From contig DASVKR010000010.1 of assembly GCA_036385275.1 (NCBI GenBank), positions 1 to 44,489 on the forward strand: DNA of 44,489 nucleotides, given 5' to 3'. Source of the stretch: Candidatus Cryosericum sp. GTDB lineage: Bacteria; Caldisericota; Caldisericia; Cryosericales; Cryosericaceae. Positions 6,494-34,323 of the stretch are shown piece after piece (within the stretch, counting starts at the first letter, position 1; the number at the start of each line of letters is the position of its first letter). Both the position numbers and the translations under genes were made by a program. The notes under the pieces were generated by a model. That model was not told where the DNA came from, made no database searches, and saw only the letters and a list, made by a program, of their open reading frames with translations.

Positions 6494-8050
6494 GTGCGTA
6501 AACTGTTTGAAGATGCTGCTGCCCGGAAGTTCTCCAAGTTGCTGATTTCCAAACTCGATCGGTGGGCACGCAATACGAGGGACTTCTACAATACATATGA
6601 CCGCCTTAGCAAGTACGGTGTCAGCCTTCTGGTACCTGACCAAGTTCCTGACACAGACTCCGCAACAGGGAAAGCCTTCATGGGGTTTCTTGCTGTATTT
6701 GCTGAATTGGAAGGAAGCATCATCAAGGGTCGCGCTATCAACACTACTGAGCATCTGAAAGCAGACGGAAGGGTGCTGGGACATCTTCCCTATGGCTACA
6801 CGTCAGGATTTCACACCGTAGTCCCGGATGAAGAGAAACTGAGGACAGCGAGAAGAGTGTATGATTTGTTCGAATCGGGGCACAGCCAACGAGACATCGC
6901 CCGTATGCTTGCAGTAGACGGGCTTACTCGGGACATAGTACGCGTGATCCTGACGAACCCGATCTATGCGGGAATGGTTGCTTATGGGCGAGGGAAAGTG
7001 GCGGGAGACCAACGGAAGCGCAAGAGTGGTGGGGTCGTTGAATCCTCGGGGTCCGAGCCGAAGCCCACCATAGACAAAGTCAAGAAGATAGTCAGCTACG
7101 AAGAGTGGTGTCAGGTGCAGGAGGACATCAGGAACAACTTCCGGCATGCTCAGGCGAAGACGTATCCTCTGTTCCAACATTTACTGTACTGTTCGACGTG
7201 CCACCACTTCCTGTCGGCTCATGGAGACGCCAAGGGCAAGACGAAATACGCTTGTGAGAACGACCGTGAGGGTCGCGTGAAGATTGGGATCCAGACAGGT
7301 GATCCTCAGCCGGAGCTGGCGGGCAGGCATTACTGCGGCCAGCAGCTTTGGGAACAGTACTTGGAGTTTCCAGTCGTTCGAGCTCTGGACGAGGCTGTGC
7401 GAGAGTGGAAGCCAGACATTGACCTCAGCCAGGAAATCAAAGACGTTCAGACCAAGCTCAGTCGTGCAATGGGCGTGGAGAACAGAGAGAAGGCTGATAT
7501 GGAGAATCCAGAGAAACCCTACGAAATCGCTGCCGCAAGGATGAAGAAAGCGCATGCGGTGGTCGAGGCAATCCATGAGAGACTTGACGCGCTCAAAGAA
7601 GAGAATGCTTCGCAAGAACTAGTGAAACGAATGCTCAAAGAAGGTTTTATGGAATTTTATTATAGCAAGAGACGTACCAAAGAACAGAAGCAGGGCATTT
7701 TGCAGCATCTCATCCGCAGGATTGATGTCGGGCCGCAAGAATTGACAATCACATGGCTCTTCATGAAAGACGGAAAGCGCCGAATACCTCGGAGCGCGAC
7801 AGATCCCAAGGGAGGTCATGGAAAACCCCAGAAATACGACCCAAAAGCCCAAAAACGGACCGTATCTGATGATTGTATAGCAAGACAAAACGCCAGTAAA
7901 AAGACCCCTTCCGGGGTCTCAGGTGGACGATTGGTGGAGATAGGGGCGTTGGACCACGCTGGCGAACACCCGTCGTCGCAACCTGAGAGCGCGGTCGTGG
8001 ACGCGCTTGCAGACGCGTTGCTCCGTATTCGCTCTCCCAGCAGTCGCTAG
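6494..8050 (+). CDS. Large serine recombinase (resolvase, recombinase, zinc ribbon, coiled coil), apparently 5'-truncated
   Basis: KLDRWARN, GK..MG.LAVFAELE...I..R, LPYGY, ILTNPIYAG, LLYCSTC...KYAC...C, LIRRIDV motifs. N-terminal YxRVS catalytic segment is absent and there is an in-frame TAA at 6485. Confidence 0.9.
   Translation: MRKLFEDAAARKFSKLLISKLDRWARNTRDFYNTYDRLSKYGVSLLVPDQVPDTDSATGKAFMGFLAVFAELEGSIIKGRAINTTEHLKADGRVLGHLPYGYTSGFHTVVPDEEKLRTARRVYDLFESGHSQRDIARMLAVDGLTRDIVRVILTNPIYAGMVAYGRGKVAGDQRKRKSGGVVESSGSEPKPTIDKVKKIVSYEEWCQVQEDIRNNFRHAQAKTYPLFQHLLYCSTCHHFLSAHGDAKGKTKYACENDREGRVKIGIQTGDPQPELAGRHYCGQQLWEQYLEFPVVRALDEAVREWKPDIDLSQEIKDVQTKLSRAMGVENREKADMENPEKPYEIAAARMKKAHAVVEAIHERLDALKEENASQELVKRMLKEGFMEFYYSKRRTKEQKQGILQHLIRRIDVGPQELTITWLFMKDGKRRIPRSATDPKGGHGKPQKYDPKAQKRTVSDDCIARQNASKKTPSGVSGGRLVEIGALDHAGEHPSSQPESAVVDALADALLRIRSPSSR
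7931..8050 (+). repeat. att-like site 1: 16-bp identity to tRNA-Ala 3' end plus family-A arm, inside the LSR 3' end
   Basis: TTGGTGGAGATAGGGG at 7931-7946 equals 34247-34262; arm block GGACCACGCTGGCGAA at 7951-7966. Confidence 0.9.
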
Positions 8051-8174
8051 ACAGGAATCGTTGCCGAACACTAGGGCCTGCCCTTTCTGGGTTGTCCGGC
8101 GTGCCAGTGAAACTGGCGTGTCGTCCTCTTTCCTCTATCTCATGCAATGCGGAGCAAGGAGCTCAGGAATAGCA

Positions 8175-9701
8175 TCACAGGAACTGTGACGTGTCCATAA
8201 CGATTGTCGGGATCAGTCCACTACCTCGTTTTCTGTTCTCTTCGATATTGACGCAGTTGATCAGGTAGATGATCGATGACTTCGCCAGTCTCATCAGATT
8301 GACCGTCTCACCTAGCATCGTGCTGTAACCGATATTCTCTTTGTCGTCTTTCTTGTCCGAATCAGTCGGCACTGAATCACAGATCACTAGTTTCCTATGA
8401 GTTGAGGCGTTCCTGATAGCCTGGAGGGGCTCATAGTAACCAGACTTGAAGTCCTGATATATGTCATAGAGGGCATACAAGCTGATGTTCTTTGATTCCA
8501 GGATCCTATCTCTTATCCTTCCGTCTAGTTGCCAAATCGTCGTGAAGTATATGCGGTCTGTTCGTAGTCCCAGGTTGTAGTAATCGTTTATGAAGACAGC
8601 AATCTTGTCCAAGATGTTGTAGGCTTCTTTGAAGGCTGATTTCAAGAGGCCAGAATACAGATTGAATTGCGAATAGTCCAACGTATTCACAAAAGTCGTT
8701 CTTCTGCTGATGCTGTCAAAGTCCTCTCTCTTGAATTGAGATTGCACCAATAGCAGCCTGGCAACAGCATAGTCTTCCTTGATTTGGTTGATGCTCTTCG
8801 CGAGTCGATAGAAGGTGTCGTCGTCTTCTATCGGCGTTATCAAGCTAATGAAGATGGGGTCAGTGATTGCCGATTCGCACTGCGTATCATGAACATGGAA
8901 ATTCAAGAAGAGCTTCTCCTTGGCACAGAAAGCCAAGTAGTACTCTTCGAATGTGGATAGGTTGGTCGTAGAGTAGTTGGGATGTGCAAGTCTCTTTGTT
9001 AGGTCTGTCTTGTCCTTGAAGCGGGATGCAATCCCTTGCAGTTCGTCTTCAAACGATTTCCTCGCGCTCAGTCCTCCAATTGCGATCAAGTCCTGATTAT
9101 CGATGATTGACTTTATCGCCTGGTATGCTTCGACATAGATCGCTCCTCTGTATCTCCCTGAGATATCAGCAAAGAAGCGCAGGGCTTTCGCCCTGTTCCC
9201 GATTGCCATTGAGAAGTGCTCGTCAATTGCTATTGCAGCATCATAAGCATCGAAAGCTTCCACCCCTCGCCCTAACATGTCTAGACAGTTGCCATAGTTG
9301 ACGAAGACTTGTTTCCTGAGGTCGCGTCTTGACTCGTCGCCATTTCTCAGAGCGTCTCTGAGGTGCTCTTTTGCCTTCTGCAAGTTGGCGCTTCTGGGGA
9401 TGCTCTCAACTCCGAGGTTTCTTTCAGTAAGGTAGTACAGAGAAGCGTAGCCGTTGGCCAGGTTGTAGTGAATATGGGGGTCATGTCCTGCGTACATGTA
9501 GTTCCGCAAATTGCGTTCTCCAATATCCAAAGCTTGCGCAAGAAGACGGTGATCACCTAGACCAATGCCAATGGCGACTAGAAAGGGCGGTTTGTTGAAT
9601 TGCAGGATGGCATCATCTGAATGCCGGGCTTCGCAACTCTCAACTCCCTCAAGGGCTTCCTGGAACCTACCCCGATCGATGAGAGAGGAGATGCGTTTCA
9701 T
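8175..9701 (-). CDS. TPR + LA2681-like HEPN domain protein (putative defence RNase)
   Basis: TPR-like helices (YNLANGY, VNYGNCLDMLGR..EA...YD.A); NQIKEDY..AR.LL, AFKEAYNILDKIA.FINDY; HEPN motif RNASTH; RBS GGAGG. Confidence 0.8.
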   Translation of the reverse strand: MKRISSLIDRGRFQEALEGVESCEARHSDDAILQFNKPPFLVAIGIGLGDHRLLAQALDIGERNLRNYMYAGHDPHIHYNLANGYASLYYLTERNLGVESIPRSANLQKAKEHLRDALRNGDESRRDLRKQVFVNYGNCLDMLGRGVEAFDAYDAAIAIDEHFSMAIGNRAKALRFFADISGRYRGAIYVEAYQAIKSIIDNQDLIAIGGLSARKSFEDELQGIASRFKDKTDLTKRLAHPNYSTTNLSTFEEYYLAFCAKEKLFLNFHVHDTQCESAITDPIFISLITPIEDDDTFYRLAKSINQIKEDYAVARLLLVQSQFKREDFDSISRRTTFVNTLDYSQFNLYSGLLKSAFKEAYNILDKIAVFINDYYNLGLRTDRIYFTTIWQLDGRIRDRILESKNISLYALYDIYQDFKSGYYEPLQAIRNASTHRKLVICDSVPTDSDKKDDKENIGYSTMLGETVNLMRLAKSSIIYLINCVNIEENRKRGSGLIPTIVMDTSQFL

Positions 9702-9888
9702 GTCCTCCGCTGTATGCTGACTGTTCTCACGCTTCGATCGTTGTGGCTGTTTCGTGGCTCCTCCTTGGTGCTACGTGCTCCTCCCCGTCCCAGTAGCGCT
9801 TGTGCTACACAAATGATCGTTTGAGAGCGGTATCCCGTCAAGGCGGGAAACGACAAAAACAGAACCACAATACCTGATGGTTCCTTCT

Positions 9889-10539: not shown

Positions 10540-10570
10540 TGTCCCCGTGCCGTGCGTCTTGCACAGAGGT

Positions 10571-11338: not shown

Positions 11339-11522
11339 ACTGACTCTGAACGGATCCCCAGTACATCAAGCCATTGTCAGTATGGCGATGAAGGCGCTTT
11401 CTGCAACTACCAGTGCTGGCGGCGTTTGCGTGTCTGCGTGCGTATCACCGTACAGGAGTTTGTCCTGTCGGGGGATCCAGTCGGTCCGGAGAGGTACTTC
11501 AGACGCGGTATTGGTGTGGTCG

Positions 11523-11615
11523 TGCTGGAGATAGCGGTGTTGGACCACGCTGGCGAATACCCCATGCTGCAACCCGAAAGCGTAGTTGCTAACGCTCTTG
11601 CGGAATGCTTTAGGT
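11523..11615 (+). repeat. att-like site, family A (degenerate core plus arm)
   Basis: TGCTGGAGATAGCGGTGTTGGACCACGCTGGCGAA aligns ungapped with 7932 onward; reads LEIAVLDHAGEYPMLQPESVVANALAE. Confidence 0.85.
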
Positions 11616-11801
11616 CCGGTCCTTTGGAAGCGACCAGGTTTGTAGTGTTTGTTCACGCGTCGCATCTTCGTTGTCGCGACTCTCGAGACGCTGTCGTTGC
11701 AGACGGCGCCGTGGTCGGGATGGGATGCTTGACGGTCCCAGCCTCTACGGCTATGATGGCGGCGTCAGTGTTGAAAAGTAGAAGCCTGAAGGAGGCGCCC
11801 G

Positions 11802-12899
11802 ATGATCTGTCCAAGATGTGGAAAGGAGATTCTTGATGGCTCTGGAGTCTGTCCTGGATGTAGTTCGGAGTCGGCAAGCGAAGAGAGGATTCCCCAACTG
11901 TTGCCCTATTCCGAAGGTGGTAGATGGGGATTCTGTGACCGGGATAGGAGGGTAGCAGTCCCTGCAGTCTATGATCATGTTGGCCTCTTCTCTGAGGGTT
12001 TGGCCAGAGTGTGGGTCGATGGGAAGTGCGGCTTCGTCGACGCTAGAGGTACTCTGGTCGTGCCTGCCGTCTACGTTGGCGTGGGGAACTTCCACTCCGG
12101 TTTTGCCTGGGTGATACTCAATGGCAGGTATGGTCTCATCAATCTGGATGGCGAATTGGCCGTGCCGACCGTCTGTGATTACGTCGGAGACTTCCATGAC
12201 GGCTTCGCACAGATCGAGCTTGAAGGCAAGTGGAGCTTCTTGGACATGAAGTGCACCCTTGTAGCTGTTCCGACTTACAGTGCGGTAGGAGACTTCCACG
12301 ACAACCTGGCGAGTGTGGAAATCGACGGCAAGCAGGGCTTCATCAACACGAAGGGTACTCTAGTCATACCGACCATTTACGACGAAGTGCGATACTTTGA
12401 GGGTGGTTTCGCGCCGGTTGAGATCAACGGCAAATGGGGCTTCATCAATGTGAAAGGAGACCTCGTTGTAGCAGCGGCATTCGATGATGTCGAGTACTTC
12501 TTCCATGGGCTGGCCCTGGTGAAGAGCTACGCCTCATGGGGTCTAGTCGACACGAAGGGCGCGCTCATCGCTGCTCCTGTATATAGTGAGATCGGAGACT
12601 TCATCTACGGATTCGCGTGGGTAAGGACCAACGACAAGTGGGGTTTTATTGACAGCAAGGGTTCACCCGTCATACCGACCATCTACGATGAGGTGCGAGA
12701 CTTCGAAGGTGATTGCGAAGGTGATTGCGCGCCGGTAAAGATGGACGGCAAGTGGGGCTACGTCGACACGCATGGTGCTCTCGTAGTTCCCACCGCATAT
12801 GATGATGTTGCAGGCTTCAACAATGGAGTCGTGTACGCTGAAATCGACGGCACGTGGGGCCGAGTCGACAGCAATGGCGCTTTCAATCAGGATGCATAG
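11802..12899 (+). CDS. Zinc-ribbon + WG (KWG) repeat protein
   Basis: RBS AGGAGG; CPRC...CPGC; repeated GKWGFI..KG..VIP..YD.V..F..G.A.V units. Confidence 0.9.
   Translation: MICPRCGKEILDGSGVCPGCSSESASEERIPQLLPYSEGGRWGFCDRDRRVAVPAVYDHVGLFSEGLARVWVDGKCGFVDARGTLVVPAVYVGVGNFHSGFAWVILNGRYGLINLDGELAVPTVCDYVGDFHDGFAQIELEGKWSFLDMKCTLVAVPTYSAVGDFHDNLASVEIDGKQGFINTKGTLVIPTIYDEVRYFEGGFAPVEINGKWGFINVKGDLVVAAAFDDVEYFFHGLALVKSYASWGLVDTKGALIAAPVYSEIGDFIYGFAWVRTNDKWGFIDSKGSPVIPTIYDEVRDFEGDCEGDCAPVKMDGKWGYVDTHGALVVPTAYDDVAGFNNGVVYAEIDGTWGRVDSNGAFNQDA
12704..12727 (+). repeat. 12-bp tandem duplication (EGDC EGDC) in the WG-repeat gene
   Basis: cgaaggtgattg x2. Confidence 0.8.
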
Positions 12900-12919
12900 C
12901 GATTCGTCACAGCATTCCC

Positions 12920-13056
12920 TGGAGAGAATCGGGACTCTGAGCAAGTCCCAATCGGGAGCTTTTCTGCAGCAAGAGCATCAATAGCTGAACGATGGCCGGC
13001 GTAACAGGGGGGGGTTGGGGTTACTGAGAAGACTGCTATTGACGATCTGCCGTCCC
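12920..13056 (+). repeat. Partial, degenerate family-B att arm
   Basis: 13034-13056 matches 32876-32898 at 21/23; upstream CGGCGT and GCAAGTCCC also shared; weak core-like TGGAGAGAATCGGG at 12920. Confidence 0.5.
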
Positions 13057-13309
13057 GTTCGCGAGTACTTGGCTTGTCGAGGATTCTGCAGACATGGGAT
13101 CCTCCTTATGCCTGGTTGCCAGCACAGTAGTTGTGGCGCTGCCGGGTCGGACCCTGGAAACATCTCATGCGTCCCAGACAGAGCAGGCTGCGGGGGGGGG
13201 TGAGGCGTACCACAGCAAGCAATGACGCCTTGCGGGGATTGCAGTGTTGTCGCAGCATTCGAGAAGCCACGGTTGAAATGCCATTCTCTATTCAAGAAAG
13301 GAAGGACAT

Positions 13310-14416: not shown

Positions 14417-15952
14417 CTATTTTACAACGCTGATCTTCCCCTTGATGACGTCGGCGGCATGCTTTGAACGGATTTCAAATGCAACGCTGTCTGGGACCTT
14501 CTTGAAGTACAAGATGGATGGAAACGAGACCGTCTTGTGCTGATTGAGCTTGCTGACCCTGAACATCCATATGTCAGTACCATTCTCGGGATTGCTGTAT
14601 GGTTCGTAGCAGAGAATCCGCATCATTCTCTCTCGAAAGGCTCCTTGTTGCTGTCTGCGGGACTCTTCTGGAGACCACGCGGGGATGAATAGGCCAGAAC
14701 CGAGTGTTGGGGGGTAGTCAGAGTATGCGTCGACGTCTAGCATCCCTTGAGGCATGAAGAATTCTCTTTCCATGTTCTGGTCGTTGAACAGCTGCACATA
14801 CGCACCGTCAGGAGCGGTGAACTCGCCAATGCCACAGACGCAGCCACCAGGCAACTCGAGGCGGATCTCGATATCTTCATCGTAAGATGTGCCTTTGTTG
14901 GAAATAGCTCCGAAACAGACGGACTGGGTAGGCAGGCTGTTGATGAACGTCTTCTCAGCCACGAAGCTCCCAATGCTGGACACAAGGTGGATGATTGCGT
15001 TGTACTTCTCTTTTTCGATAGGAGATGATGCCGTAATACCCCCTCTGACGTCTTCCCAAAGGTCTCCGACATCGAAGAAACTAGTGTCATCGAGCTGAAT
15101 GTTCTGCACGTCGCAGAATCTCCTGATCAACTTGCGAGCCTCATCAACCACAACAACCTTCTTTCCCCTAATGAAGCTGCCGCCAATAGCCTGGATCTGA
15201 CTTTGGAGAGCTGAGATCGCAGCAACACCTCCGATCACGTTTCCGGCTTCAGGCCCTGTCTTGTTCTCTCTTTGTGGCACGAGGCGCATTGCACTGATCT
15301 GCGCGATCTGGCTTGTGAGCGAATCCTTGGCCTCACGCAGGCGTCTGTCGAAGTAGTCGTATTCTACGTGCAGCTCATCAGTGAGCTTGCCATTGAGGAC
15401 TCCACAGACAGTAAGCCTGGGAAGCGTCGACGCAGTAGAAACTGTCTTGCCGAGAGCGTCTGTATTGTCCCTAATGTACTGCTCAAGATCATTCGAGAAT
15501 TTTCCCCGAAAGTCCTCTGCTGAATCGAATGTCTTGTACAGGGTGTCTCCTTGGCGCCGCTGCTTGAATTCTTTTACTTTCTGCAGTTGGTCACTTTGAA
15601 GGTCGGCCGGGGGAACTGGCACGTTGGAGAAGTACAGGAACACACCCTTGCCCTGATTGCGCATCCTAGAGATCTCCTCTTCCGTACCTGACCCGTAAGC
15701 GTCAGTCGGCGTGCCAAAACGCGTCCAGAAGATGGCGACGGCGAAATCGCACCCGTCGACGACTTGATGATTCAGTGCTTCCTGTGGCTTCTTGGTCTCG
15801 GGATAAGCCAAGTGCCAGTCCTTCAAGACGATGGCCAGGTCTTCATGGCGCTTGTTGAAATCATCAACAACCGTCCGTACCACGTCCAGCTCCTCTTTGA
15901 CGTCCGAGGGGCACGAAATCAGCATGTCATATCGTGTGACATTTCTTGCCAT
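14417..15952 (-). CDS. DUF4062-like (TIR/nucleoside-deoxyribosyltransferase-like fold) N-terminal domain protein, putative defence
   Basis: LISCPSDV.EE, PQ..LN.Q....CD..VAIFWTRFGTPT....SGTEEE, VFLYFS motifs; RBS GGAGG. Confidence 0.8.
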   Translation of the reverse strand: MARNVTRYDMLISCPSDVKEELDVVRTVVDDFNKRHEDLAIVLKDWHLAYPETKKPQEALNHQVVDGCDFAVAIFWTRFGTPTDAYGSGTEEEISRMRNQGKGVFLYFSNVPVPPADLQSDQLQKVKEFKQRRQGDTLYKTFDSAEDFRGKFSNDLEQYIRDNTDALGKTVSTASTLPRLTVCGVLNGKLTDELHVEYDYFDRRLREAKDSLTSQIAQISAMRLVPQRENKTGPEAGNVIGGVAAISALQSQIQAIGGSFIRGKKVVVVDEARKLIRRFCDVQNIQLDDTSFFDVGDLWEDVRGGITASSPIEKEKYNAIIHLVSSIGSFVAEKTFINSLPTQSVCFGAISNKGTSYDEDIEIRLELPGGCVCGIGEFTAPDGAYVQLFNDQNMEREFFMPQGMLDVDAYSDYPPTLGSGLFIPAWSPEESRRQQQGAFRERMMRILCYEPYSNPENGTDIWMFRVSKLNQHKTVSFPSILYFKKVPDSVAFEIRSKHAADVIKGKISVVK

Positions 15953-16534: not shown

Positions 16535-16899
16535 CCGTGTGGAAGATGACCGATGGAGAAAGGGTCACGCTGCGGCATGCGTGTGTGCAGCGAATTGACG
16601 TAGACTTTGATTCCATGCGGGATACAGTGCTGTGGACGTTCAGTAGCACCCTAAGTCATCTAGATCTTGCAGAGGCCAAGGCAATTTCGGTACAACTCTC
16701 ATATGCTAATCGGAAAGGGGCATCAAAAGCCACTACTACACCTAGGTGTCAAATGGTGGAGCCGAGGGGCAAGGACCGGTCGTCACGACCACTTCTGGAT
16801 GCTCTTCTCACCGTTCTACGAGCTCATTCGGCAGAGGCAGTTGCGAGGAGTGCTGCAGGGGCTGCGATAGAGCAACGTCCAAGCACGGTTTCCCGCTAG
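16535..16899 (+). pseudogene. Probable C-terminal remnant of a second serine recombinase running into an att-like site
   Basis: ERVTLRHACVQRIDVD...VLWTF resembles EQKQGILQHLIRRIDVG..LTITWLF of the LSR; same frame continues into MVEPRG. Confidence 0.5.
16754..16830 (+). repeat. att-like site, family C (core TGGTGGAGCCGAGGGG)
   Basis: 16-bp core identical to 22925-22940; colinear downstream arm. Confidence 0.75.
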
Positions 16900-17786: not shown

Positions 17787-18190
17787 AGTACCTCTCTCCC
17801 ATGTACGATTTGCCCGTGTCTTGTTGGACCATGGTTCACGTCAGTGGCAAAACACCAGCATAGAAGTAGGTTAGCAGAAGACTAGGTATTTGCGACGTTT
17901 ATAGGCGAGAGATCAGTCTCGGCGATGGCAGTTCCGTACTTGCCGTTTTGGGACCTGGGCGAACCGCTCAGAAGTCGCCCTTCCTGCCCCGCCATGGCTC
18001 ACGTGCAGGAGGCGCACGTACATCTCGGTACGGCGAATCGGTGAGTGGCACCCTCTCTCATCACTACACGTCGAGACATCGCCGCCGCCGGACTGCTGAC
18101 GTAGTCATCTACTTGCAGTTCTTGGCGAATGCGCGAACTGACTCGTTCCGCAGTCAGTCCCAAGCCAAAAGGGGTTGGTTGTGATTGTGC

Positions 18191-18205
18191 GGTGGAGATA
18201 GGGGG
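18191..18205 (+). repeat. att-like core, 15-bp identity to tRNA-Ala 3' end
   Basis: GGTGGAGATAGGGGG equals 34249-34263. Confidence 0.8.
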
Positions 18206-18341
18206 ATTGGTGGGTCCTCTCGACTCTCTGTTGATGTGCTAATTGGCGCACTTCAGATGCGGTCGTTGGAGACAACTCGTACCTAGCGAGCGATGGTCGG
18301 GCACTCAGGAGGCAGTCGGAGGTAGGAGAGTGGTGGTTGTG

Positions 18342-18648
18342 TGGTGGAAATCGGGGTCTTGAACCGACGTGGCAACATCACGGAACTGCGCTCGAAAGCA
18401 TCCAGACTGCTTGAAGGCGGCAAGGTCATGCAGTTCGGGACAAAGTCGGTCCGGGAGACGGTACGGGTTGAACCGATTCTCGTGCTTAAATACTTGGCAG
18501 CGAGGATTAGTCACCTTTCATCGAGAGAGCAACGCCCCGGATGAGCCCCTATTGTCGGTGCTCGGAACAAGATCATGTACGGCGCCAGATCTGGTGGTCG
18601 TCTGGCAAGGTCTCTGTTGACTCTCCGCCATCCTGTTCATCTACAGCT
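18342..18648 (+). repeat. att-like site, family B with ~300-bp arm
   Basis: TGGTGGAAATCGGGG core; GCATCCAGACTGCTTGAA at 18398-18415 identical to 32658-32675 at the same offset; patchy similarity continues to TCATCTACAGCT. Confidence 0.8.
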
Positions 18649-18667
18649 TGCAGACGACTGACATGAT

Positions 18668-21385: not shown

Positions 21386-21695
21386 CACACCTCTAGTGGA
21401 TGAGTTGTTCCAAGTGTGGTCGTCCAAGACCGCTCCTGAGTGTCGTACTAACGGAACTGCACTCCTAGACCGACTTGGTCGAGTCTATCTCACGGTTCTT
21501 GCCTTCCCGAGAATAGGTTGCCCGCTAGAGCCGTGACACTGCGAGCAAGCCCTGTTGCTATGTCCAGTTGAGCTGCCAGGTTGATTGCAATGAGGTCTGC
21601 ATCCTTCGTGGCTCCTCCCGCAGCCGCCCTTATCTCTGCCCCCGGCTTCCTCCGGGGGCATGCTTGTCTCACGAAGAAAGTGACTGGGGCCAGGC

Positions 21696-21710
21696 GGTGG
21701 AGATGGTGGG
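21696..21710 (+). repeat. Possible degenerate att-like core
   Basis: GGTGGAGATGGTGGG, intergenic, same orientation as the other cores; only 9 bp exact. Confidence 0.3.
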
Positions 21711-21868
21711 CGAACAGGCACCCGTGCGATCTATAGGCATAGTCAATGTTGAAGCTGGTCTTGGAGGTAGTCCTTGGTGTCGGTAGCTGCTTGAACGGGA
21801 AGGACACTACGCACCGTGAATGCTCGATCCCCCGTAAGAGTGCAAAGCAGGAGCTGACAGCAGGAATG

Positions 21869-22924: not shown

Positions 22925-23000
22925 TGGTGGAGCCGAGGGGGAACGCCCCTCCTGACAACCACTTTGTCGGTGCTATTGTCAGCATTCCCCAAGCTAGATC
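22925..23000 (+). repeat. att-like site, family C
   Basis: TGGTGGAGCCGAGGGGG; reads VVEPRGNAPPDNHFVGAIVSIPQA, colinear with MVEPRGKDRSSRPLLDALLTVLRA at 16753. Confidence 0.75.
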
Positions 23001-23132: not shown

Positions 23133-23160
23133 TTGACATCTGCTGCACTGTAGTTAGCAT
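23133..23160 (+). promoter_or_regulatory. Putative sigma70-type promoter
   Basis: TTGACA-16bp-TAGCAT. Confidence 0.35.
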
Positions 23161-23329: not shown

Positions 23330-24982
23330 GTGAGACTCCATTCGAGTAGGCGGCGCCTGCCGATCCGGAACATCATGGAAGTGAGCTTGATTTGCGCCCT
23401 CGCACTCTTGGCGATTGTGGGCATCATCTCGCCAGAACGAGTGCCGGACGTCCTTGGACTACGCATCCCGGAGACCGGAACGGGCGCCCTCACAGTAGTT
23501 GGCGAAACAGCAGGCACAATGCTCGCTCTCTTCGGTGCAGCCCTTCTCTTCGGACTGGAGACATACCGACAGAGCTATGGGTCTCGGTACTGGGAAGCGC
23601 TGTCCACCTCTCTCAACTTGAGGTCACTCATCGCCTACCACCTTCTGTGCTTGGTGGCGTCGTTTGCTGCATTTGGACTCCGCGGTTCAGGGAGAGTATA
23701 TCAGTCAATTCTGCTCGCGGATCTTGCAGTTGTTCTCCTTGCGATTAGTGTCACCAAGGTCGTCGCAGCAGCGCACAGAATCATTGTCGAGCCTCGCCAA
23801 CTTGTCTACCTCGATGAGGTTCTATACGGAGATGGGACATATAGTGCTAGCAAGATTGGGGAAGACGCACACGCCGGTGCACTGTCGGAAGACACAATAT
23901 CGTACTTTGGAGAGGCTGCGCAGTTGGCTGTGCTACGTCACGATGACTACGCGCTAGACCAAGTTCTCGAGAGAAGCTGGGACAGAGTTGTCAACGTACA
24001 CGATAGTCAATGGGAGTACATTCGAATGATGACACGAAAGCCGCAGTCGCCGTTTCGGATCGACTGCAATGCATATGCACAGATCATGGAGAGTGCGCTA
24101 CGCGAATCGAGAAGGTCACAGGATGCTGCCATGATTGGGACCATCTTGCGGCATGTGCGCCCGGTTCTTGAGTGTGTCGTTGGTGCCGACTTGGACATGG
24201 TAGATGCTGTAGAAGTCATACACGTGTGGCAGAGGATCGTAAGGACGGCTATCTCAGAAAACTGGAGCCCGTTGCTTGTCAGTGCATGTCCCATCGTTGA
24301 CATGATAGTCACGCAACGAGCTGATCACAGAGGATATCCACCACCACTCGCAGCCAAGTGGCTAGCCCGATGGTCTAGGAATGCAGCGTTGAGTGGAAAC
24401 CTGTATCTGCTTGTGCCATTGCTGAACTGTGAGACGAGACTGGTAAGGGCTTTCCGAGAATCACATACTGCGGATGATGCATGCGCGCTCCAGTGGTTTG
24501 ACTTCTTGCGGACACTCTATGATTCCTTTGGGGAGATGATAGACCTGGCCATGCAGAAAGGAATTGACATGAGCGACCTGCGGCTCCAGGACTCACTTCT
24601 GAGCCCTGCATTCTTCTCAGAGTCAGTGGTCTCGATCGACAATGGTCAATCCTGCATCGAAGCGGTCTATCTTGACATTGCACACCATGTTCTGGCTCAC
24701 GCGGCTTTGCCTGCTACAGTCCAGGAGATGATTGAGTCGGTGGTGACCAGGCTACAGGACAACTCACAAGGCCTTGGTCAATACGGAAGAGCTCTGATAG
24801 TCACTCTGCAAGAAACCTATACGAGTACGCCAGAAGGAGAATCGGGGCAGCATGATCGGGTCTGGGCGACGAAGCTGCTCAAGTCAGTGTATGATGCAGC
24901 TGTAGATGCAGAGCAAGTCAATGTAGTCAGGCAATGCGAAGTCTCAGCCACTTCTATGGGAGCTCGGTTGGAAGATTGCTAG
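23330..24982 (+). CDS. Membrane protein with 4 N-terminal TM helices and helical cytoplasmic domain (DUF2254-like architecture)
   Basis: Hydrophobic helices and LETYRQSYGSR motif; alternative ATG start at 23375. Confidence 0.7.
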   Translation: MRLHSSRRRLPIRNIMEVSLICALALLAIVGIISPERVPDVLGLRIPETGTGALTVVGETAGTMLALFGAALLFGLETYRQSYGSRYWEALSTSLNLRSLIAYHLLCLVASFAAFGLRGSGRVYQSILLADLAVVLLAISVTKVVAAAHRIIVEPRQLVYLDEVLYGDGTYSASKIGEDAHAGALSEDTISYFGEAAQLAVLRHDDYALDQVLERSWDRVVNVHDSQWEYIRMMTRKPQSPFRIDCNAYAQIMESALRESRRSQDAAMIGTILRHVRPVLECVVGADLDMVDAVEVIHVWQRIVRTAISENWSPLLVSACPIVDMIVTQRADHRGYPPPLAAKWLARWSRNAALSGNLYLLVPLLNCETRLVRAFRESHTADDACALQWFDFLRTLYDSFGEMIDLAMQKGIDMSDLRLQDSLLSPAFFSESVVSIDNGQSCIEAVYLDIAHHVLAHAALPATVQEMIESVVTRLQDNSQGLGQYGRALIVTLQETYTSTPEGESGQHDRVWATKLLKSVYDAAVDAEQVNVVRQCEVSATSMGARLEDC

Positions 24983-25448
24983 AGGCATCTTCGGTGTGTC
25001 AACGGTTCGATCTGACCATAAGTGGACGCGAGTTCAGCGTCGAGCGCTCGACTGGAGACCTGCCCGGTTCGTACATCAGAGGGAATTTCGGAATAAGTCG
25101 ACCAACAAGGTTAGTTGCATCATAGTGACATGCGCTGCGCTCGATTCCAGCGTCAACAAGCTCGACTCTACAGAGACATCTTTCAGCGACCTTGGCCTAT
25201 GAGGGATGTGAGGGTATGAAGCATTGATACTCGACAACGGCGCGGCGACCTCTAGGTTCGTCGGGGCCGAGTCGTTCTAGGTGTGGGATGTCTGAGGAGA
25301 TCGTTCCTGCGTCGGACTTGCCGAGCACATCGATGAGTCTGTTGAGGTGGACGAGGCAACCGCACCCTGGATCGTGCATGCGCCAGGTCATCGCTGATTG
25401 AAGCGAGAGTCTTGGAGTTGTCGACTCGCGGAGGAGGGACAGAACGGG

Positions 25449-28400
25449 ATGAGCAGAATCATTAGTGAACTGGAACTGGATCAATGGGTCAGGAATCATC
25501 CGACACCTGCGGAGAGCGTGATTCCGGAACTCCTGTTGCGACTTGTCAGGCAATCTTGCCCGGGAGCCGTAGAGAGACGCATCCCGATTGGCGACAGCGT
25601 GAACCAGCCAGGGCTCGATGGCGTTCTTGTCGCGGACCAGGGTTTCGGCGCTTTCGTGCCGACAGGGAAATCCTGTTGGGAGATTGGGATTGGAGCAGAT
25701 GCAGCTGAGAAGGCGACGGACGACTATGCCAAACGGACGACCGGACTGAACACGTCGGTTCCAGAAGACATCAGGAAGGAATCGACCTTCATCTTTGTCT
25801 CACCCCTGTCGGCACAGAGAAGCTGGCGAAGAGAATCCCAGTCAGTATGGCTGGCACGGCACAGAAGTCGCAATGAGTGGGCTGATGTCCGGATCGTTGA
25901 CGGAACCGGGATCGTTGATTGGCTGGAGGATTTCCCGGATGTCGAGTTGTGGCTCGCGGGACGAATGGGGATTCACGTTGAGCAGATCGAGCTCGCGAGT
26001 CAACACTGGAAGAAAGTGTCTTCTGTTGGCAGCCACAGGCTCGCACCAGAACTGTATCTTGCAGGTCGCGAAGCCGTCTCGAGCGCGCTGGAAAAGTCGT
26101 TTGCTCATGAGCAGAAGCAGCTGGAGATTGACACCCATTTCCCCGGTGAAGCAGTGGATTTCGTGTCAGCTTTCATCGCATCGAAGGAGGTGCGCGGAGG
26201 ACAACCGGGGCTTGATCAGTGCCTGATTGTATCCGGAAGAGAAGCTTTTGATGAGATTGCGGGACTTGAAACAACCAGGGTGTTGGTTCTCGACTTCCCG
26301 TTCGGCGACGACAACACGATGACGTCCGCCATCGCACAAGTAGAATCGAAAGGAAACGTAGTTGTTTATGAAGGAGTACCGGGAGGCCAAGAAGACTCGG
26401 AAAGGGTGTTGCTGGCAAAGCCACGCAGGCATGCGATTGAAGAGAATCTTGTGAAGGCTGGTTACTCAGAAGAGCGAGCTCGGTTACTGGCACAGCAGAG
26501 TGATCAGAACCTGAGCGCTCTTCTTAGGCTGATTCAGGGCGTTCCAGCGGCACCTGAGTGGTCTCGCAGCGGAGAGGCTGCTGACCTCGCTTTGGCTCAG
26601 CTGGCAGGTGGATGGCATGAGGACTTGCCGGCTGACAAGGCGGCGGTCGAAGAGCTGTCAGGCAGGGACTATGCGACCTGGGCTACGAGGCTCAGTGGGA
26701 TCATTGCTCAGCGGCGAAGCCCGATCGTCCGGAAGGGAAAGGTGTGGCAATTCGCCGCACGCTATGAGGGTTGGCAATGCTTGGGCCAGCTGGTTCACGA
26801 CGAGGATCTTGACAGATTCCGGAGAGTTTCCATCGATGTCCTGAGTGAGCGTGATCCCCAATTCGACCTTCCCCCAGACAAGCGATTTGCGGCATCGATG
26901 TATGGCAAGACGCTCACGCATTCCGTCCAACTGAGAAAAGGATTGTCCGAGACCTTGGCGCTCCTCGGGGGTTACCCAAACACACTTACATCATGCTCAG
27001 CGGGGAGCGCCGAGGGGACTGCCACGCTTGTCGTCAGGGGCGTTCTGTCGGGGGCAGGCTGGGACCGATGGGCCAGCCTCAATGATGTGCTGCCTCTTCT
27101 CGCTGAAGCTGCGCCATTGGAGTTCCTGGATGCAGTTGACAAGTCTCTTCGCATGTCGCCGTGTCCTTTCGACACTGTTTTAGCTCAGGAGGGGAAGGAC
27201 CTGCTAACCGGAGGGAACTACATGACTGGTCTTCTTTGGGCGCTAGAAGGACTCGCCTGGAGTCGGGACTATTTCTCGAGAGTAGTGAGCATCTTGGGAG
27301 AACTGGCCCAGCGCGATCCATCAGGGAACTCGGCGAACCGTCCAGCCAACTCCTTGGTGGCAATTCTACTACCGTGGCAGCCTCAAACGACTGCCGCGCT
27401 GCAACAGAGAACGGCAGCGGTTGCGATCCTGTGCAAGAGTCAACCGGGAGTTGCCTGGAGTCTTCTAGTCACCATGCTTCCATCGATGCATCAGGTCTCT
27501 TGGCCCTCCCACCGCCCTGTTTGGCAGACCGGATGGATTCCTGAAGACTGGCGCAAAGGTGTGACGACACCGGAGTACTGGGATGCAGTCTCGGCCTATG
27601 CTGATATGACAATGGGCATGGCAAGGGACAACCTGCAGCGTCTCATGGAACTACTGGAGCATCTGAACGGTCTGTCGCCACAAGCCTTGGACGAACTACT
27701 CGTATACCTCAATTCGGATTCGATCAAGTCCCTACCTGAGAGCCAAAGAACTTGCATTTGGAATCGGCTGATGGAGTTCCTCAGTGACACCAAGAGGACA
27801 AACAGGGCTAAAGGGGCAGTGACGCCAGAAGTGCTCAACAAGATCGGAGGCGTCGCAGAAGAGATCTCCCCGAAGTCTCCCATCTATCGGCATCAGCGTC
27901 TCTTTACTGATAGAATACGAGGTCTATTCGATGACCAGGGGAGCTATGCGGAACAGCAGAAACGCCTTGATGAGCAACAGCAGGCGGCTGTCAGTGAGGT
28001 GTACAAAGCTCATGGCTATGACGGTCTCCTGAGGTTCGTCGATGCCGTACAGTCGCCGTCCCGGGTTGGATCAGCCCTGGGCGCTATTGCAGATGCCGCG
28101 GTCGATGCACGGATCCTCCCGTCGCTGATAGATTCGGATGATACAACAATCGGACAGTTCCTCGGCAGTTTCGTGTGGCGCAGGTACTTCATTCTGGGCT
28201 GGCAATGGGTTGACGCTCTAGATACTGCTTGTTGGACTTCCGATCAGAAGGCCCAATTCCTGGCATACCTGCCCTTTGCTTCGGGGACTTGGAGGCGAAT
28301 TCCGGTATGGATGAAAGAAGATGAAGCGAAGTACTGGGTCAAGACTCCTGCGGAACCGCGCGAGGACGACGAGAACCTTGCAGGTGCCGCCGAGAGACTG

Positions 28401-29264
28401 CTGGAGTTCGGTCGCCCATTGGCCGCCGTACGGTGTCTTGAGCACATAGCTCTCCAGAACAAGCCGATCGACAGTCAGCAAATCATTCGGACTCTAAGGC
28501 AAGCGGTTACGTCTTCTGAAAGACCCTATCAGGACGATGGATATGCCATCTCGAAACTCATAGACGCGGTGCAGCGGGATTCCACAGTGAAACGATCAGA
28601 TGTCGCCGCAGTGGAATGGACATTTCTGCCTCTTCTAGATGGGTATCTCGACGGGGCACACCACAAAGCGCTAGATCGTGAGCTTGCGGAGAGTCCTGCC
28701 TTCTTCTGTCAGGTGATTCGGATGGTGTTCGGCTCTGCGAAGGAGAAGGGACAGCAGCGCGACCTGGGTGAACAACAGATGAAGATGGCCGAGAACGGCT
28801 ATCGGTTGCTGAGTGAATGGGAGATTCCCCCGGGGCTGCATGAGGATGGGACATTTCACGGCGGGGATATGGTTTCTTGGCTGAACCATATCGAGGAGGA
28901 GTGCATGGAATCTGGTCATCTTGAAGTTGCCTTGGACATCGCTGGACAGGTCCTCTTCCATGTTCCTTCCGATCCCGACGGTCTCTGGATTGACGAGTCT
29001 GCCGCGAGAGTCTTGGATGAAAATGACGAGAGCGCCGAGCGTCTTCGTTCTGGGTTTGGCAGTGCAATAGTGAACTCGCGGGGCGCTCACTGGGTAGACC
29101 CCTCGGGACAGGAAGAGCGAGCATTGGCAGATGGATACCGCCAGAAGGCTGATGCTCTGAACATACATGGATACTCCCGCTTAGCTGCGACCTTTCAGGG
29201 AATTGCGAAGAGGTACGACCAGGAAGCAGGGGAGGTTGTGGCACGCCGTGAGTCGGAAGAGTAG
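25449..29264 (+). CDS. Large putative defence protein: restriction-endonuclease-like N-terminus, degenerate NTPase-like region, long helical sensor region
   Basis: PELLLRLV, PGLDGVL, VP.G.S.WEIG, KATDDY.KRT motifs; LAGRE after nuclease domain but no canonical Walker A; LLWALE.LAW, ANRP.NSL; ATG 25449 preferred to TTG 25398. Confidence 0.75.
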   Translation: MSRIISELELDQWVRNHPTPAESVIPELLLRLVRQSCPGAVERRIPIGDSVNQPGLDGVLVADQGFGAFVPTGKSCWEIGIGADAAEKATDDYAKRTTGLNTSVPEDIRKESTFIFVSPLSAQRSWRRESQSVWLARHRSRNEWADVRIVDGTGIVDWLEDFPDVELWLAGRMGIHVEQIELASQHWKKVSSVGSHRLAPELYLAGREAVSSALEKSFAHEQKQLEIDTHFPGEAVDFVSAFIASKEVRGGQPGLDQCLIVSGREAFDEIAGLETTRVLVLDFPFGDDNTMTSAIAQVESKGNVVVYEGVPGGQEDSERVLLAKPRRHAIEENLVKAGYSEERARLLAQQSDQNLSALLRLIQGVPAAPEWSRSGEAADLALAQLAGGWHEDLPADKAAVEELSGRDYATWATRLSGIIAQRRSPIVRKGKVWQFAARYEGWQCLGQLVHDEDLDRFRRVSIDVLSERDPQFDLPPDKRFAASMYGKTLTHSVQLRKGLSETLALLGGYPNTLTSCSAGSAEGTATLVVRGVLSGAGWDRWASLNDVLPLLAEAAPLEFLDAVDKSLRMSPCPFDTVLAQEGKDLLTGGNYMTGLLWALEGLAWSRDYFSRVVSILGELAQRDPSGNSANRPANSLVAILLPWQPQTTAALQQRTAAVAILCKSQPGVAWSLLVTMLPSMHQVSWPSHRPVWQTGWIPEDWRKGVTTPEYWDAVSAYADMTMGMARDNLQRLMELLEHLNGLSPQALDELLVYLNSDSIKSLPESQRTCIWNRLMEFLSDTKRTNRAKGAVTPEVLNKIGGVAEEISPKSPIYRHQRLFTDRIRGLFDDQGSYAEQQKRLDEQQQAAVSEVYKAHGYDGLLRFVDAVQSPSRVGSALGAIADAAVDARILPSLIDSDDTTIGQFLGSFVWRRYFILGWQWVDALDTACWTSDQKAQFLAYLPFASGTWRRIPVWMKEDEAKYWVKTPAEPREDDENLAGAAERLLEFGRPLAAVRCLEHIALQNKPIDSQQIIRTLRQAVTSSERPYQDDGYAISKLIDAVQRDSTVKRSDVAAVEWTFLPLLDGYLDGAHHKALDRELAESPAFFCQVIRMVFGSAKEKGQQRDLGEQQMKMAENGYRLLSEWEIPPGLHEDGTFHGGDMVSWLNHIEEECMESGHLEVALDIAGQVLFHVPSDPDGLWIDESAARVLDENDESAERLRSGFGSAIVNSRGAHWVDPSGQEERALADGYRQKADALNIHGYSRLAATFQGIAKRYDQEAGEVVARRESEE

Positions 29265-29382
29265 TTGACGTGAGGATCCTCGTTGTCAGACTGCCAAGAG
29301 ACACGACCGCACTGTCGATCCTCCGGCAGCCAATTGTGTCTCCGGATGAATTGTCCCTAGAGGAGAGGAGGTCCGCATCGGC

Positions 29383-30228
29383 ATGAACTCTACTGATTCA
29401 GCAGACGCGTGCGTTAGTGATTTTCGAAAGCGCTGGAGTATGACCCAGGTTCCTGCAGAGGCAATTGAGGACTTCCGAAACAGAGCGTTCGGGAGCATCA
29501 AGGAAGCCCTCGGAGGCTTGATACTAGATGATTCGTCGATATCGAACGCTTTCCTCCACGCGTTGGGGGAACCGGTGTCATCGGATGATTGGGGGTACAT
29601 CGACAAGCTGACGGAGACGCCACTCTGGCACGCTCTAGAGCGAAGAACTACCCTGCCCGACTTCGTTCTCGCACTTGAGGTTCTGTTTCACATCGGGTTG
29701 GATGGTCATATACAACAACAACTGGCGTGGCTGTTGCGCAAGGACATTGTGGCTTCAGGAGTACCAGTCTCGTGTGCCGAGAATAGTGGTTGCCTCACTT
29801 TCTACCCGGAGGGGGCGCGACTGCTTGATGAGCAGGTCATCAACGCTGATCTCACTTGGCTTGGTGCCTACCCGGAGGCTTTGAAGGCTTTTTCCGAGGC
29901 CCTCAGCGTCTACGGTTCGTCTGGTCAGCACAGACACATGCTTGATTGCCTCAGACTATGTATTGAAGAGCTAGCTAGGAAGGTGCTGGGGAATGAGTTG
30001 TCCCTGGAGAAGAACACCGTCGGTTTGTTGGCACTTCTTGAGCCCGTGCTAAGCAAGGAGACGCGGAACATGACTCGCGTGCTGCTCGACTACTACACCA
30101 GATATCAAAACGAACACGTCAAGCACCACGATGACTCGACTCCAGTCGAGGTCGCATTCATCCTGTATCTCACTGCGACATTCGTCTACCTGTTCATTGC
30201 GGCGCGTCGGGAAACCAGCCATGACTAG
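29383..30228 (+). CDS. Abi-like protein with C-terminal HEPN-like domain
   Basis: RBS GAGGAGG; LDCLRLCIEEL...LGN..SLE and YQNEHVKH...E..FILYLT..F. Confidence 0.7.
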   Translation: MNSTDSADACVSDFRKRWSMTQVPAEAIEDFRNRAFGSIKEALGGLILDDSSISNAFLHALGEPVSSDDWGYIDKLTETPLWHALERRTTLPDFVLALEVLFHIGLDGHIQQQLAWLLRKDIVASGVPVSCAENSGCLTFYPEGARLLDEQVINADLTWLGAYPEALKAFSEALSVYGSSGQHRHMLDCLRLCIEELARKVLGNELSLEKNTVGLLALLEPVLSKETRNMTRVLLDYYTRYQNEHVKHHDDSTPVEVAFILYLTATFVYLFIAARRETSHD

Positions 30229-32369: not shown

Positions 32370-32603
32370 CTCACGAACTGATAGACAGTAGCTGGATGCA
32401 CTTCTGCACAGGAGACTGGAGCGGTTCTGGCTACTGAGGCGGACTCTTCTCTCTGCTGCTCGGCCTGGGCGTTCTCTGCCACAGGGAGGGCGCTGAAACT
32501 CCACCAGTAGCGAGAGAAAGCGAGGAAGCACGCTGGAGAAGAGTAGCACATCTGAAACGAAGGTAGTGCTTATGTGGTATTCAGGAAGTCACGTAGTACG
32601 GGA

Positions 32604-32912
32604 GTGGAGATAGTGACCTCAAACCACTGTGACGGTGCTGCGTTACGGCATCGCCTCGCATCCAGACTGCTTGAACGCAGGAGCCTCAGACAGTCCCAGG
32701 CAAGTCCCGCTCCGGAGAATATGCTGGTCACCCCGGTCCTCCTGACTGAGCACTTAGCGGCACGGACTACTCATCTTTCATTGAGAGTGCAACCAGCTAG
32801 GTGAGATCCGGGTGTGTGTGCTTGACACAATATCAAACGCGGCGTCAGACCGGAGGGCTGATTCTCTTGGGGAGTTGCTATTGATGATCTGCCATCCCCG
32901 TCATCAACAGCT
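32604..32912 (+). repeat. att-like site, family B with ~300-bp arm
   Basis: GTGGAGATAG core; reads VEIVTSN...ASRLLE...P.L...LAAR..HLS.R.Q, colinear with 18344-18544. Confidence 0.8.
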
Positions 32913-32932
32913 AGTGTATCAACGGGTCAACA

Positions 32933-33038
32933 GGGGTCGGACCACGCTGGCGAACGCCCGTCATCAAAACCCGAGAGCGTAGTGGTTGACGCTCTTGCGG
33001 ATACCTTGTTGCAGGTCCGATGCTCGCACACCGAGTGA
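32933..33038 (+). repeat. Family-A arm lacking the tRNA core
   Basis: GGACCACGCTGGCGAA at 32939-32954; reads DHAGERPSSKPESVVVDALADTLLQVR. Confidence 0.85.
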
Positions 33039-33838: not shown

Positions 33839-34004
33839 TTCTCGTGACTCAAGATCGGAAATGTTCTTGAGATGGCTGTCTACAAGTTCCTGATAATCGG
33901 AAATGCAGTTGGTGATGCCTGCGAGGGTTTGCTGGATGGCATCAAGCTTGCGGTTTGACTCGCTTACACCCCCGGCTACGCCATAGCACAGAGCCTACCT
34001 GTAG

Positions 34005-34047
34005 GCACGACGAGAAGCTCGCCTTTCTGGCGGGTTTCTTGTTGTGC
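34005..34047 (+). other. 19-bp hairpin, fully paired with G:U wobble on the + strand
   Basis: GCACGACGAGAAGCTCGCC-TTTCT-GGCGGGTTTCTTGTTGTGC. Confidence 0.6.
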
Positions 34048-34247
34048 GATAGCAAAACACGTATTGATAGCGTCAGGAGGTCTTGAGCGTATTCGTGGAA
34101 GTCGCACGGCCAAACCTGTGCCACCAATCAGCGTCGCTCAGACCAAATTGGTTCCCCGCCATTGCGTTTGCTTCAACTCGATCTGCGCACGGAGGGGAGT
34201 CGGTGGAGTCTGAAGATAGAACTGCAAACGCAGTATTGATGAGGCTT

Positions 34248-34323
34248 TGGTGGAGATAGGGGGGCTCGAACCCCCGACCTCCTGCATGCCATGCAGGCGC
34301 TCTCCCAGCTGAGCTATATCCCC
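34248..34323 (-). tRNA. tRNA-Ala (anticodon GGC)
   Basis: 76-nt cloverleaf GGGGATA...CCTGC-ATGGCAT-GCAGG...TTCGA...TATCTCCACCA, G3:U70 pair, encoded CCA. Confidence 0.98.

Follow-up and report, generated by a model that had tools for sequence, protein, structure and literature searches.

The window considered here is a stretch of 44,489 nucleotides from Candidatus Cryosericum sp. (assembly GCA_036385275.1, contig DASVKR010000010.1), in which a tandem array of units lies between a large serine recombinase (LSR) pseudogene and a tRNA-Ala(GGC) gene (Table 1). Short copies of the tRNA 3′ end, termed att cores, are found on the + strand in a single orientation at 7932, 11523, 16754, 18190, 18342 and 22925, in addition to the tRNA itself at 34248. 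The core at 7932 is an exact 14-mer of the tRNA-Ala(GGC) 3′ end, of which the cores at 11523, 18190 and 18342 are likewise repeats, and those at 16754 and 22925 are a variant matching tRNA-Ala(CGC), which is encoded on contig C99 of the window's own genome (G000:C99). A degenerate 15-mer pattern, composed after the sites had been seen, matched the window eight times (seven known sites and one position within the dtd gene), whereas 100 shuffles averaged 1.28 matches and never reached eight. At 21695 and 32920-33019 the cores are eroded and the homology of the right arms to relatives is clear; at 32602 the core is eroded and the arm clusters with that at 18342.

A sequence-only reading of this stretch had claimed that copies of the tRNA 3′ end recur in one orientation, which is borne out by the core, shuffle and arm comparisons except at a weak site near 12920, where the arm comparison with relatives gave no match and the site was not confirmed. 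A second weak site, near 21696, corresponds to the eroded core at 21695 with an R1 right arm shared with relatives. The same reading held that the units lack an intact integrase, in agreement with the nine core-to-core units of the window (3591, 5231, 1436, 152, 3353, 1230, 9677, 318 and 1328 bp), none of which contains an LSR match.

Table 1. Features of the window, with positions counted from its first nucleotide.
Feature	Position	Strand	Remarks
Large surface protein, 2057 aa	106..6279	+	SdrD-B, SpaA, PKD, SLH; 41.8% GC
LSR pseudogene	6491..8050 (ORF 6494-8050)	+	Pfam Resolvase positions 53-144 only, plus Recombinase domain
att core 1	7932..7946	+	antisense of tRNA-Ala(GGC) 3′ end, within LSR frame; then right arm of R3 type, whose tail finishes with the helix AVVDALADALL
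TPR and LA2681-like HEPN protein	8175..9701	-	defence-like cargo
Junction 2	11496..11620	+	left arm resembles tRNA-side arm; core 11523 with 2 mismatches; R3-type right arm
Zinc-ribbon and WG-repeat protein	11802..12899	+	cargo
DUF4062 / PDC-S60-like protein	14417..15952	-	candidate defence cargo
Junction 3	16754..16840	+	core of tRNA-Ala(CGC) type; R4 right arm
Gene-free mini-unit, 152 bp	18190..18341	+	core, R5 arm, LSR-tail-like left arm
Junction 5	18342..18420	+	core degenerate; R7 right arm
ApeA-like HEPN protein	18668..20185	-	defence-like cargo
Junction 6	21695..21789	+	core eroded; R1 right arm, the commonest arm family among relatives
Junction 7	22925..23000	+	core of tRNA-Ala(CGC) type
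Three genes	23330..30228	+	550 aa, 1288 aa, 281 aa (PDC-S32-like)
Junction 8	32602..32680	+	core eroded; R7 right arm
Junction 9	32920..33019	+	R3 right arm; core eroded
L2-type left arm beside tRNA	34190..34247	+	same family left of many internal cores in relatives
tRNA-Ala(GGC)	34248..34323	-	target (attB) and anchor; sole tRNA called by ARAGORN; housekeeping genes beyond

The LSR pseudogene is the only Resolvase match in G000, a genome that is 82% complete. Alignment to an intact homolog shows that its first ~70 residues, including the catalytic serine, are missing, and the lost N-terminus was found neither upstream nor elsewhere in this 82% complete genome. An intact LSR in a related genome (G008:C262) is 86–87% identical to the window copy. 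The features of an active LSR (a YxRVS serine catalytic domain, a recombinase domain, a zinc ribbon and a coiled coil) are all present in five relatives but incomplete in the window copy. One contig of the likely source run covers window positions 5200-25100 with 0 differences, and therefore the LSR break recurs in a second assembly, which is probably of the same reads. The att core at 7932 is read in the LSR frame as the codons LVEIG, and the frame continues across it into a tail of 39 codons. Because the core lies inside the LSR open reading frame (ORF), the LSR forms the right-hand end of the unit that precedes 7932, and the next unit supplies its last 39 codons. The sequence-only reading had placed the LSR outside the interval bounded by the cores; this is correct for the body of the gene, which lies left of 7932, but the core falls within the LSR frame, so the LSR belongs to the left-hand unit. 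The adjoining surface-protein region (106-6490), which abuts the LSR cut point, contains internal ~300-bp repeats and has 42% GC against 57% for the genome; it is likely foreign, and the surface protein probably belongs to the cargo of the left-hand unit.

The LSR or its tail was matched in 16 of 41 related genomes. A search of a genome collection with the LSR gave five close matches, four in Ca. Cryosericum and one in a genome titled Ca. Deferrimicrobium; the other 75 loci kept were distant. Five intact LSRs were read from loci, of which three run directly into the tRNA-Ala antisense, ending ...EIGGLEPPTSCMPCRRSPS, and two end in the arm of the neighbouring unit. Of 156 database proteins fetched, 12 have a core-like tail, and every one of these ends in the tRNA peptide, some of them duplicating the LSRs read from loci. 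The units that house the intact LSRs measure 23.7, 26.9 and 51.9 kb, with a further one open-ended, and they carry an O-like initiator with DnaB, Prim-Pol or Rep3, together with restriction, BREX-like or Schlafen cargo. No PHROGs match to capsid, terminase or tail was found among the 65 proteins scanned, and no conjugation genes were seen in the annotated array and element proteins of relatives. A prophage origin was considered and rejected, as a scan of viral contigs with LSR alignment returned only distant LSRs (best segment 24–39% identity); three core-pattern matches in viral contigs were attributed to chance, and the two inspected had no arms or LSR match.

The largest array met in relatives, in G002:C27, comprises 14 units spanning 79 kb; smaller arrays are found at tRNA-Ala(CGC), and the same arm families adjoin tRNA-Met. 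A Recombinase-family match is present in 11 of the 23 genomes of the genus, which are incomplete metagenome-assembled genomes (MAGs), and many arrays show none. Outside the genus, the ATAG pattern gave 0–3 matches in each of nine genomes and no array. In the window's own genome, two further exact cores with R1 arms (G000:C158:971 and 15594) enclose a 14.6-kb unit, which is possibly the outer part of the window's array; a 3.7-kb unit without an LSR runs from a tRNA-Met-type core to tRNA-Met with an L4-type arm (G000:C3:4261-8084); and arm remnants, also without an LSR, adjoin tRNA-Ala(CGC) (G000:C99:1150-1754). Among relatives, an LSR fragment lies upstream of tRNA-Ala(CGC) in G036, a 74-bp unit links a GGC-type core to tRNA-Ala(CGC) at G019:C1:88114-88188, and full tandem duplications of the 3′ part of tRNA-Ala(CGC) occur at G011:C51:3013 and 4984 and in G003:C3 (L371). 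Other LSR clades of the genus, with frames of 517 and 569 aa, read likewise into the antisense of tRNA-Glu(CTC) (L012, L020, L080) or tRNA-Arg(CCG) (L013).

The left arms that flank the cores are often the ends of LSR genes. Among 159 left alleles, 45 align to one of five LSR 3′ ends, 4 of them whole and 41 as truncated remnants of 24–1436 nt (31 of the 41 being at most 140 nt long); the remaining 114 show no alignment to these five ends. A block of ~500 bp left of the core, common to many junctions (G011:C1, G020:C209, C239, C94, G015:C39 and the L251 type), has no LSR match; it could represent the terminus of LSRs from a clade that was not sampled. The right arms fall into about nine families. 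In R1, R3, R4 and R6, third-position changes are in excess in the VEIG frame, and no such excess is seen in R5, R7 or the left arms L2 and L3. The tail frame is open over 27 codons in 70 of 73 R1 alleles and in all 11 R3 alleles, and the ratio of synonymous to non-synonymous variants is 39:64 in R1 and 22:19 in R3, against ~1:3 for neutral DNA; these alleles are related to one another and were chosen by their first codons. An AlphaFold model of an LSR with an R3 tail places all folded domains before residue 515 and the core, after which come a disordered linker and, in the tail, a helix of low confidence, and its mean predicted local distance difference test score (pLDDT) of 57.7 (35–48 in the tail) is too low to judge packing of the tail on the enzyme. 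The right arms thus appear to be alternative C-terminal tails that LSRs would bear on the circle, and the swapped tail looks to be under protein-like constraint.

The core variant tracks the right arm (ATAG in 23 of 23 R1 arms, CCGA in 8 of 8 R4 arms) and not the left arm (14 vs 3 for L2), and arms of these families also adjoin tRNA-Met, where no more than the first 6 bases are shared. From these two observations we infer that the crossover lies at the CCA end. The codon over the core is nearly always GTG, ATG, TTG or CTG (at all junctions, e.g., 7931-8050), and purine-rich stretches immediately precede it in some left arms, from which it follows that the tails might be made as separate peptides of 30–50 aa.

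Whether the recombinase-free units move was assessed in a metagenome scan of at least 124 loci, selected by the R1/R3 pattern, with wide flanks for 80 of them. One metagenome locus and three viral loci were excluded as chance matches, and G019:C16 and three weak matches were skipped; core calls allowed at most 2 mismatches, whereby some eroded junctions were merged. Among the loci listed, 82 complete units form 65 families, with a full LSR in 3, a remnant in 8 and no LSR match in 54. A 5,072-bp unit (a phosphotransferase system (PTS) mannose-family operon with NanE) is 99.7% identical in L248/L251 and L278/L279, where both neighbours differ, and in L261 the two flanks seen in L279 recur at 99.6% and 99.8% identity with exactly this unit missing. 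A 3,580-bp unit with an LSR remnant is 99.6% identical in two contexts with both neighbours different. The 152-bp mini-unit at 18190 has counterparts of 152–154 bp in G002, G006, G010, G011 and G016, again with differing neighbours. At 95% identity across 150 nt, more than one partner is seen for 15 of the left alleles and 16 of the non-tRNA right alleles among the loci listed, a single left allele joining up to five right alleles and a single non-tRNA right allele up to six left alleles. Identity ends at most 5 nt left of the core in 35 of 41 pairs with the same right side, and in 10 of 36 pairs with the same left side the sequence passes into a different non-tRNA arm family once no more than 17 nt have been shared, a length below the usual assembly word sizes. 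Two units occur in opposite order in G013:C46 and G014:C88 at 89–91% identity. A segment without an LSR, located on tRNA-bearing contigs in both G002 and G011, has 96.6% identity between these genomes, against 90.3% for the housekeeping flank, and the same cargo is present in both tRNA-Ala arrays (GGC and CGC). In a run from another study (X2), contigs cover window positions 9298-16769 at 95–99%, and the last listed piece ends at the core at 16754.

Since near-identical recombinase-free units lie between different neighbours, visiting mobile elements likely excise and re-insert them. We regard the array as a tandem stack at the tRNA-Ala 3′ end, likely built by repeated integration of plasmid-like elements whose LSR 3′ end bears the att site, with the recombinase-free units likely still being excised and re-inserted by the LSRs of later elements. 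An intact element, as read in relatives, consists of a core, a right arm, cargo and replication genes, the LSR and a second core, with the LSR frame crossing that core into the following DNA. On the circle, the LSR would end in the tail of its own element, predicted to be a short helix that follows a disordered linker. Integration would replace this tail by antisense tRNA codons, and the tail would persist at the element's far end, forming the right arm. The core variants suggest that the crossover falls within the last 6–8 bases of the tRNA, and thus the same enzymes could use tRNA-Ala(GGC), tRNA-Ala(CGC) and probably tRNA-Met. The pattern of left arms shows that the LSR was lost many times independently, with ~50–140 bp of its end usually kept. 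Units without an LSR would retain working att sites, between which an incoming LSR could excise, and the excised units may be re-inserted alone as circles or together with an adjacent element. The window itself contains no intact LSR and several of its cores are eroded, and this copy is therefore probably dormant.

A more far-reaching form of this proposal, which we put forward only tentatively, is a serine-recombinase cassette system without a resident integrase, in which two or three tRNA 3′ ends serve as entry sites and small cassettes are excised, passed between strains and species and re-inserted when an LSR element visits. The swap of the C-terminal tail across att would then act as a built-in switch of direction or activity, replacing a directionality factor.

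Several observations weigh against mobility of the recombinase-free units. No core-to-core circle or excision joint was found in the Logan contigs of runs X1–X5, although such contigs are unable to show absence; one candidate joint in X1 (32998 to 15800) was rejected, being the window's own arm at 7939-7998 matching the repeat at 32939. No order cycle occurs among the 65 complete-unit families and no four-cycle in the graph of left and right alleles, and the G013/G014 reversal is the sole one found, with the core between the two units lost in G014:C88. The R1-family arms at the joins of the 5,072- and 3,580-bp units share 31–34 identical bases, so that assembler mis-joins are possible, and a single contig supplies the second context of the 5,072-bp unit. 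Differing right neighbours alone are explained by plain serial insertion at the tRNA, and many cargo matches between units start or stop in their interior instead of at a core, which means that cargo is moved by other routes as well. The metagenome loci, chosen by the R1/R3 pattern, are not independent, and in comparative data excision as a solo circle is indistinguishable from riding with a neighbour, as is mobilization in cis from mobilization in trans. To our knowledge, recombination of attP-like pairs by canonical serine integrases requires a directionality factor, and none was identified here.

Some of these points would be expected of a graveyard, in which elements integrated serially at the tRNA and decayed in place, the internal cores are dead, and the apparent shuffling reflects mis-assembly, slippage deletions and vertical inheritance. 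LSR remnants of many lengths (up to 1436 nt), the eroded cores of the window, the position of intact LSRs mostly next to the tRNA and the failure to see a circle in X1–X5 all fit such decay, as does the comparison of G008:C73 with L268, in which the same left neighbour is followed by the tRNA or by another unit. However, near-identical integrase-free units with different left neighbours, the order reversal, the same cargo in both tRNA-Ala arrays, CGC-type cores within the GGC array and the excess identity between species argue against it, and we consider it unlikely as a full account. As an account of how the units arose, serial integration followed by loss of the integrase, which the sequence-only reading had offered as its alternative, is likely; the evidence says that serial integration and shuffling both occur.

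More doubtful still is the suggestion that the units are rearranged through homologous recombination of the host or through slippage, acting on the repeated cores and arms, and that the LSR merely adds elements at the tRNA. R1 arms do share 31–40 identical bases, at 65–90% identity over 60 nt, and a direct-repeat deletion would yield the L261 structure. In contrast, the 10 arm-family swaps share at most 17 bases, which is too short for efficient RecA recombination, and the breakpoints cluster at the core edge and not along the arms.

The sequence-only reading had suggested an integron analogue, in which one resident LSR outside the array is a fixed platform that captures dedicated defence cassettes. 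Although 83% of unit families (54 of 65) have no LSR match, units shuffle at cores and the window cargo includes two HEPN and two PADLOC-candidate proteins, this model is very improbable and already contradicted by a window LSR that lacks the catalytic N-terminus and is therefore not an integron platform, by the missing Recombinase-family gene in many arrays and in 12 of the 23 incomplete MAGs of the genus, by arms that stem from LSR genes of several clades and by mixed cargo. Its expectation that unit content and order vary with breakpoints at the cores agrees with relatives, in which homology breaks at cores and near-identical units change neighbours. Its expectation that one LSR persists does not, as relatives show no conserved LSR at the outer edge, the window LSR is a truncated part of the left unit and intact LSRs lie inside large mobile elements with replication genes. 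Of the claim that an LSR captures, excises and reorders cassettes, the part that stands is that LSR-type att junctions bound integrase-free units whose neighbours change; the resident platform does not.

Integrons hold arrays of units that lack recombinases, carry adaptive cargo of mixed kinds, enter at one end and are reshuffled at repeated sites, and the array described here is similar in these respects. The units described here resemble their cassettes in changing neighbours at a repeated site without a recombinase of their own (with the assembly caveat for R1 arms), but there is no IntI, no fixed platform integrase and no attC hairpin, and the units reach 14 kb with genes on both strands. 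No tyrosine recombinase was found among 34 window proteins or 125 array proteins of G001/G002, and the two PF00589 matches of G000 sit on other contigs. Twelve folds of eight junctions gave z from -2.0 to +0.95 with no shared attC-like hairpin across the core. The array is thus not an integron, though its units behave like cassettes.

The closest known counterparts are the ssrA islands of Dehalococcoides with the LSR DsiB (McMurdie et al. 2011; PMC3146451), which, like the other published systems below, are described from portions of the cited papers. These islands are tandem and bounded by repeats of the target 3′ end, the 3′ end of DsiB overlaps att with its stop codon in the neighbour or target gene, 15 of 31 islands have no integration module and are proposed to be cis-mobilizable, and the islands carry metabolic cargo (PMC3146451). 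The same architecture is met here, namely tandem islands bounded by target 3′-end repeats and an LSR whose 3′ end overlaps att and stops in the neighbour or target, so that the label of a new system given by the sequence-only reading does not hold; the array is a busier form of the island type known from Dehalococcoides. However, the target here is tRNA-Ala (GGC, CGC) and probably tRNA-Met rather than ssrA, and the inferred crossover lies at the CCA end rather than in the T-loop. The six-gene module dsiB-dsiA-recF-parB-mom-large ORF was not seen; no second Resolvase, ParB or Dehalococcoides-type module lies upstream of the LSR in G001 or G002 or among the scanned G011/G020 proteins. Replication genes are present, 62 of the 65 families have no full LSR, many units are under 3 kb, and near-identical integrase-free units were found in different contexts. 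The tails look protein-constrained, whereas DsiB C-termini were found to be divergent (PMC3146451). The array therefore works like the Dehalococcoides islands without being a member of them, having another target and another module; what appears new is the comparative evidence of shuffling at cores, the traffic between two tRNA-Ala loci and the seemingly conserved tails. No paper on these arrays was found in the Cryosericum literature, judged from titles and the beginnings of abstracts, and the word 'tRNA' is absent from the main text of an LSR survey (PMC10083194), whose supplements may hold further examples.

Other accretion systems share parts of this organization. Composites of the staphylococcal cassette chromosome (SCC), such as SCCmec, ACME (arginine catabolic mobile element) and ccr-less modules, likewise combine LSRs, one chromosomal anchor and direct-repeat modules with and without recombinase in variable presence and order, and their excision has been measured (PMC7029739, PMC13739063). 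However, SCC is anchored at rlmH and its Ccr (CcrAB/CcrC) genes lie inside the element, unsplit by att, whereas here a single LSR is split by att at a tRNA target; composites make up 0.8–10.6% of extracted SCC elements (PMC7029739, PMC13739063), compared with up to 14 units per array here. Cis-mobilizable elements (CIMEs) are defined by loss of integration and transfer genes with both att sites kept, a description that suits the 54 families without an LSR match and the 8 with remnants, but the examples of accretion among integrative conjugative and mobilizable elements (ICE, IME) given in the portion of PMC5704250 consulted use tyrosine integrases and conjugation and involve few elements. In the 'suicidal' integrases of the archaeal SSV family (PMC7253208), att also lies inside the integrase gene, which is split on integration, and hybrid integrases whose parts differ in origin occur; these are tyrosine recombinases split into two inactive parts, whereas the serine recombinase here would keep all its predicted folded domains and swap only the tail. 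Tycheposons of Prochlorococcus (10.1101/2020.12.28.424599) are replication-gene elements at tRNA 3′ ends, including tRNA-Ala(GGC), with tandem copies between partial tRNAs and accumulating remnants, but 910 of 937 use tyrosine recombinases, and an att-split LSR and mobile integrase-free units are not described in the parts of that preprint consulted.

As far as the portions consulted go, the Dehalococcoides and staphylococcal papers leave three questions, namely the continued mobility of recombinase-free modules, the action of recombinases on non-cognate internal sites (stated as unknown for SCC in PMC13739063) and the role of an att-overlapping C-terminus. Because this genus has several clades of intact LSRs, dozens of naturally occurring att arms and near-identical units placed in different contexts, all three are open to plasmid tests in E. 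coli. Control of direction by the tail, if it exists, would represent a new way of regulating serine integrases, which serve as genome-engineering tools.

The cargo of the arrays is mixed and not mainly defence, and the label of defence cassettes in the sequence-only reading was too narrow. PADLOC matches (E ≤ 1e-10) were obtained for 17 of 125 cargo proteins of the metagenome arrays, ~3 of them likely cross-matches, the types including type I restriction-modification, PD-Lambda-5, Avs2, Dit, GmrSD-like and others. Much of the remainder is sugar uptake, transporters of the PTS, TRAP and ABC types, surface proteins and enzymes with catabolic or redox roles, which suggests how an uncultured soil and permafrost fermenter exchanges sugar-uptake, surface and defence genes. 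The cargo of the window comprises two HEPN, PDC-S60-like, PDC-S32-like and WG-repeat proteins and many family-less ORFs. The HEPN protein at 8175..9701 has an 84% homolog in a different unit of L258/L306, and the gene type at 14417..15952 lies directly after an R3 arm in G020:C6, L267 and L320. The 550-aa and 1288-aa proteins have no Pfam, NCBIfam or PADLOC match; the 1288-aa gene and the 281-aa PDC-S32-like gene have an 81% match in a unit of G002:C27, and the Atlas matches of the 1288-aa protein (25398-29264) are unnamed clusters, some of them fused to helix-turn-helix (HTH)/HigA domains.

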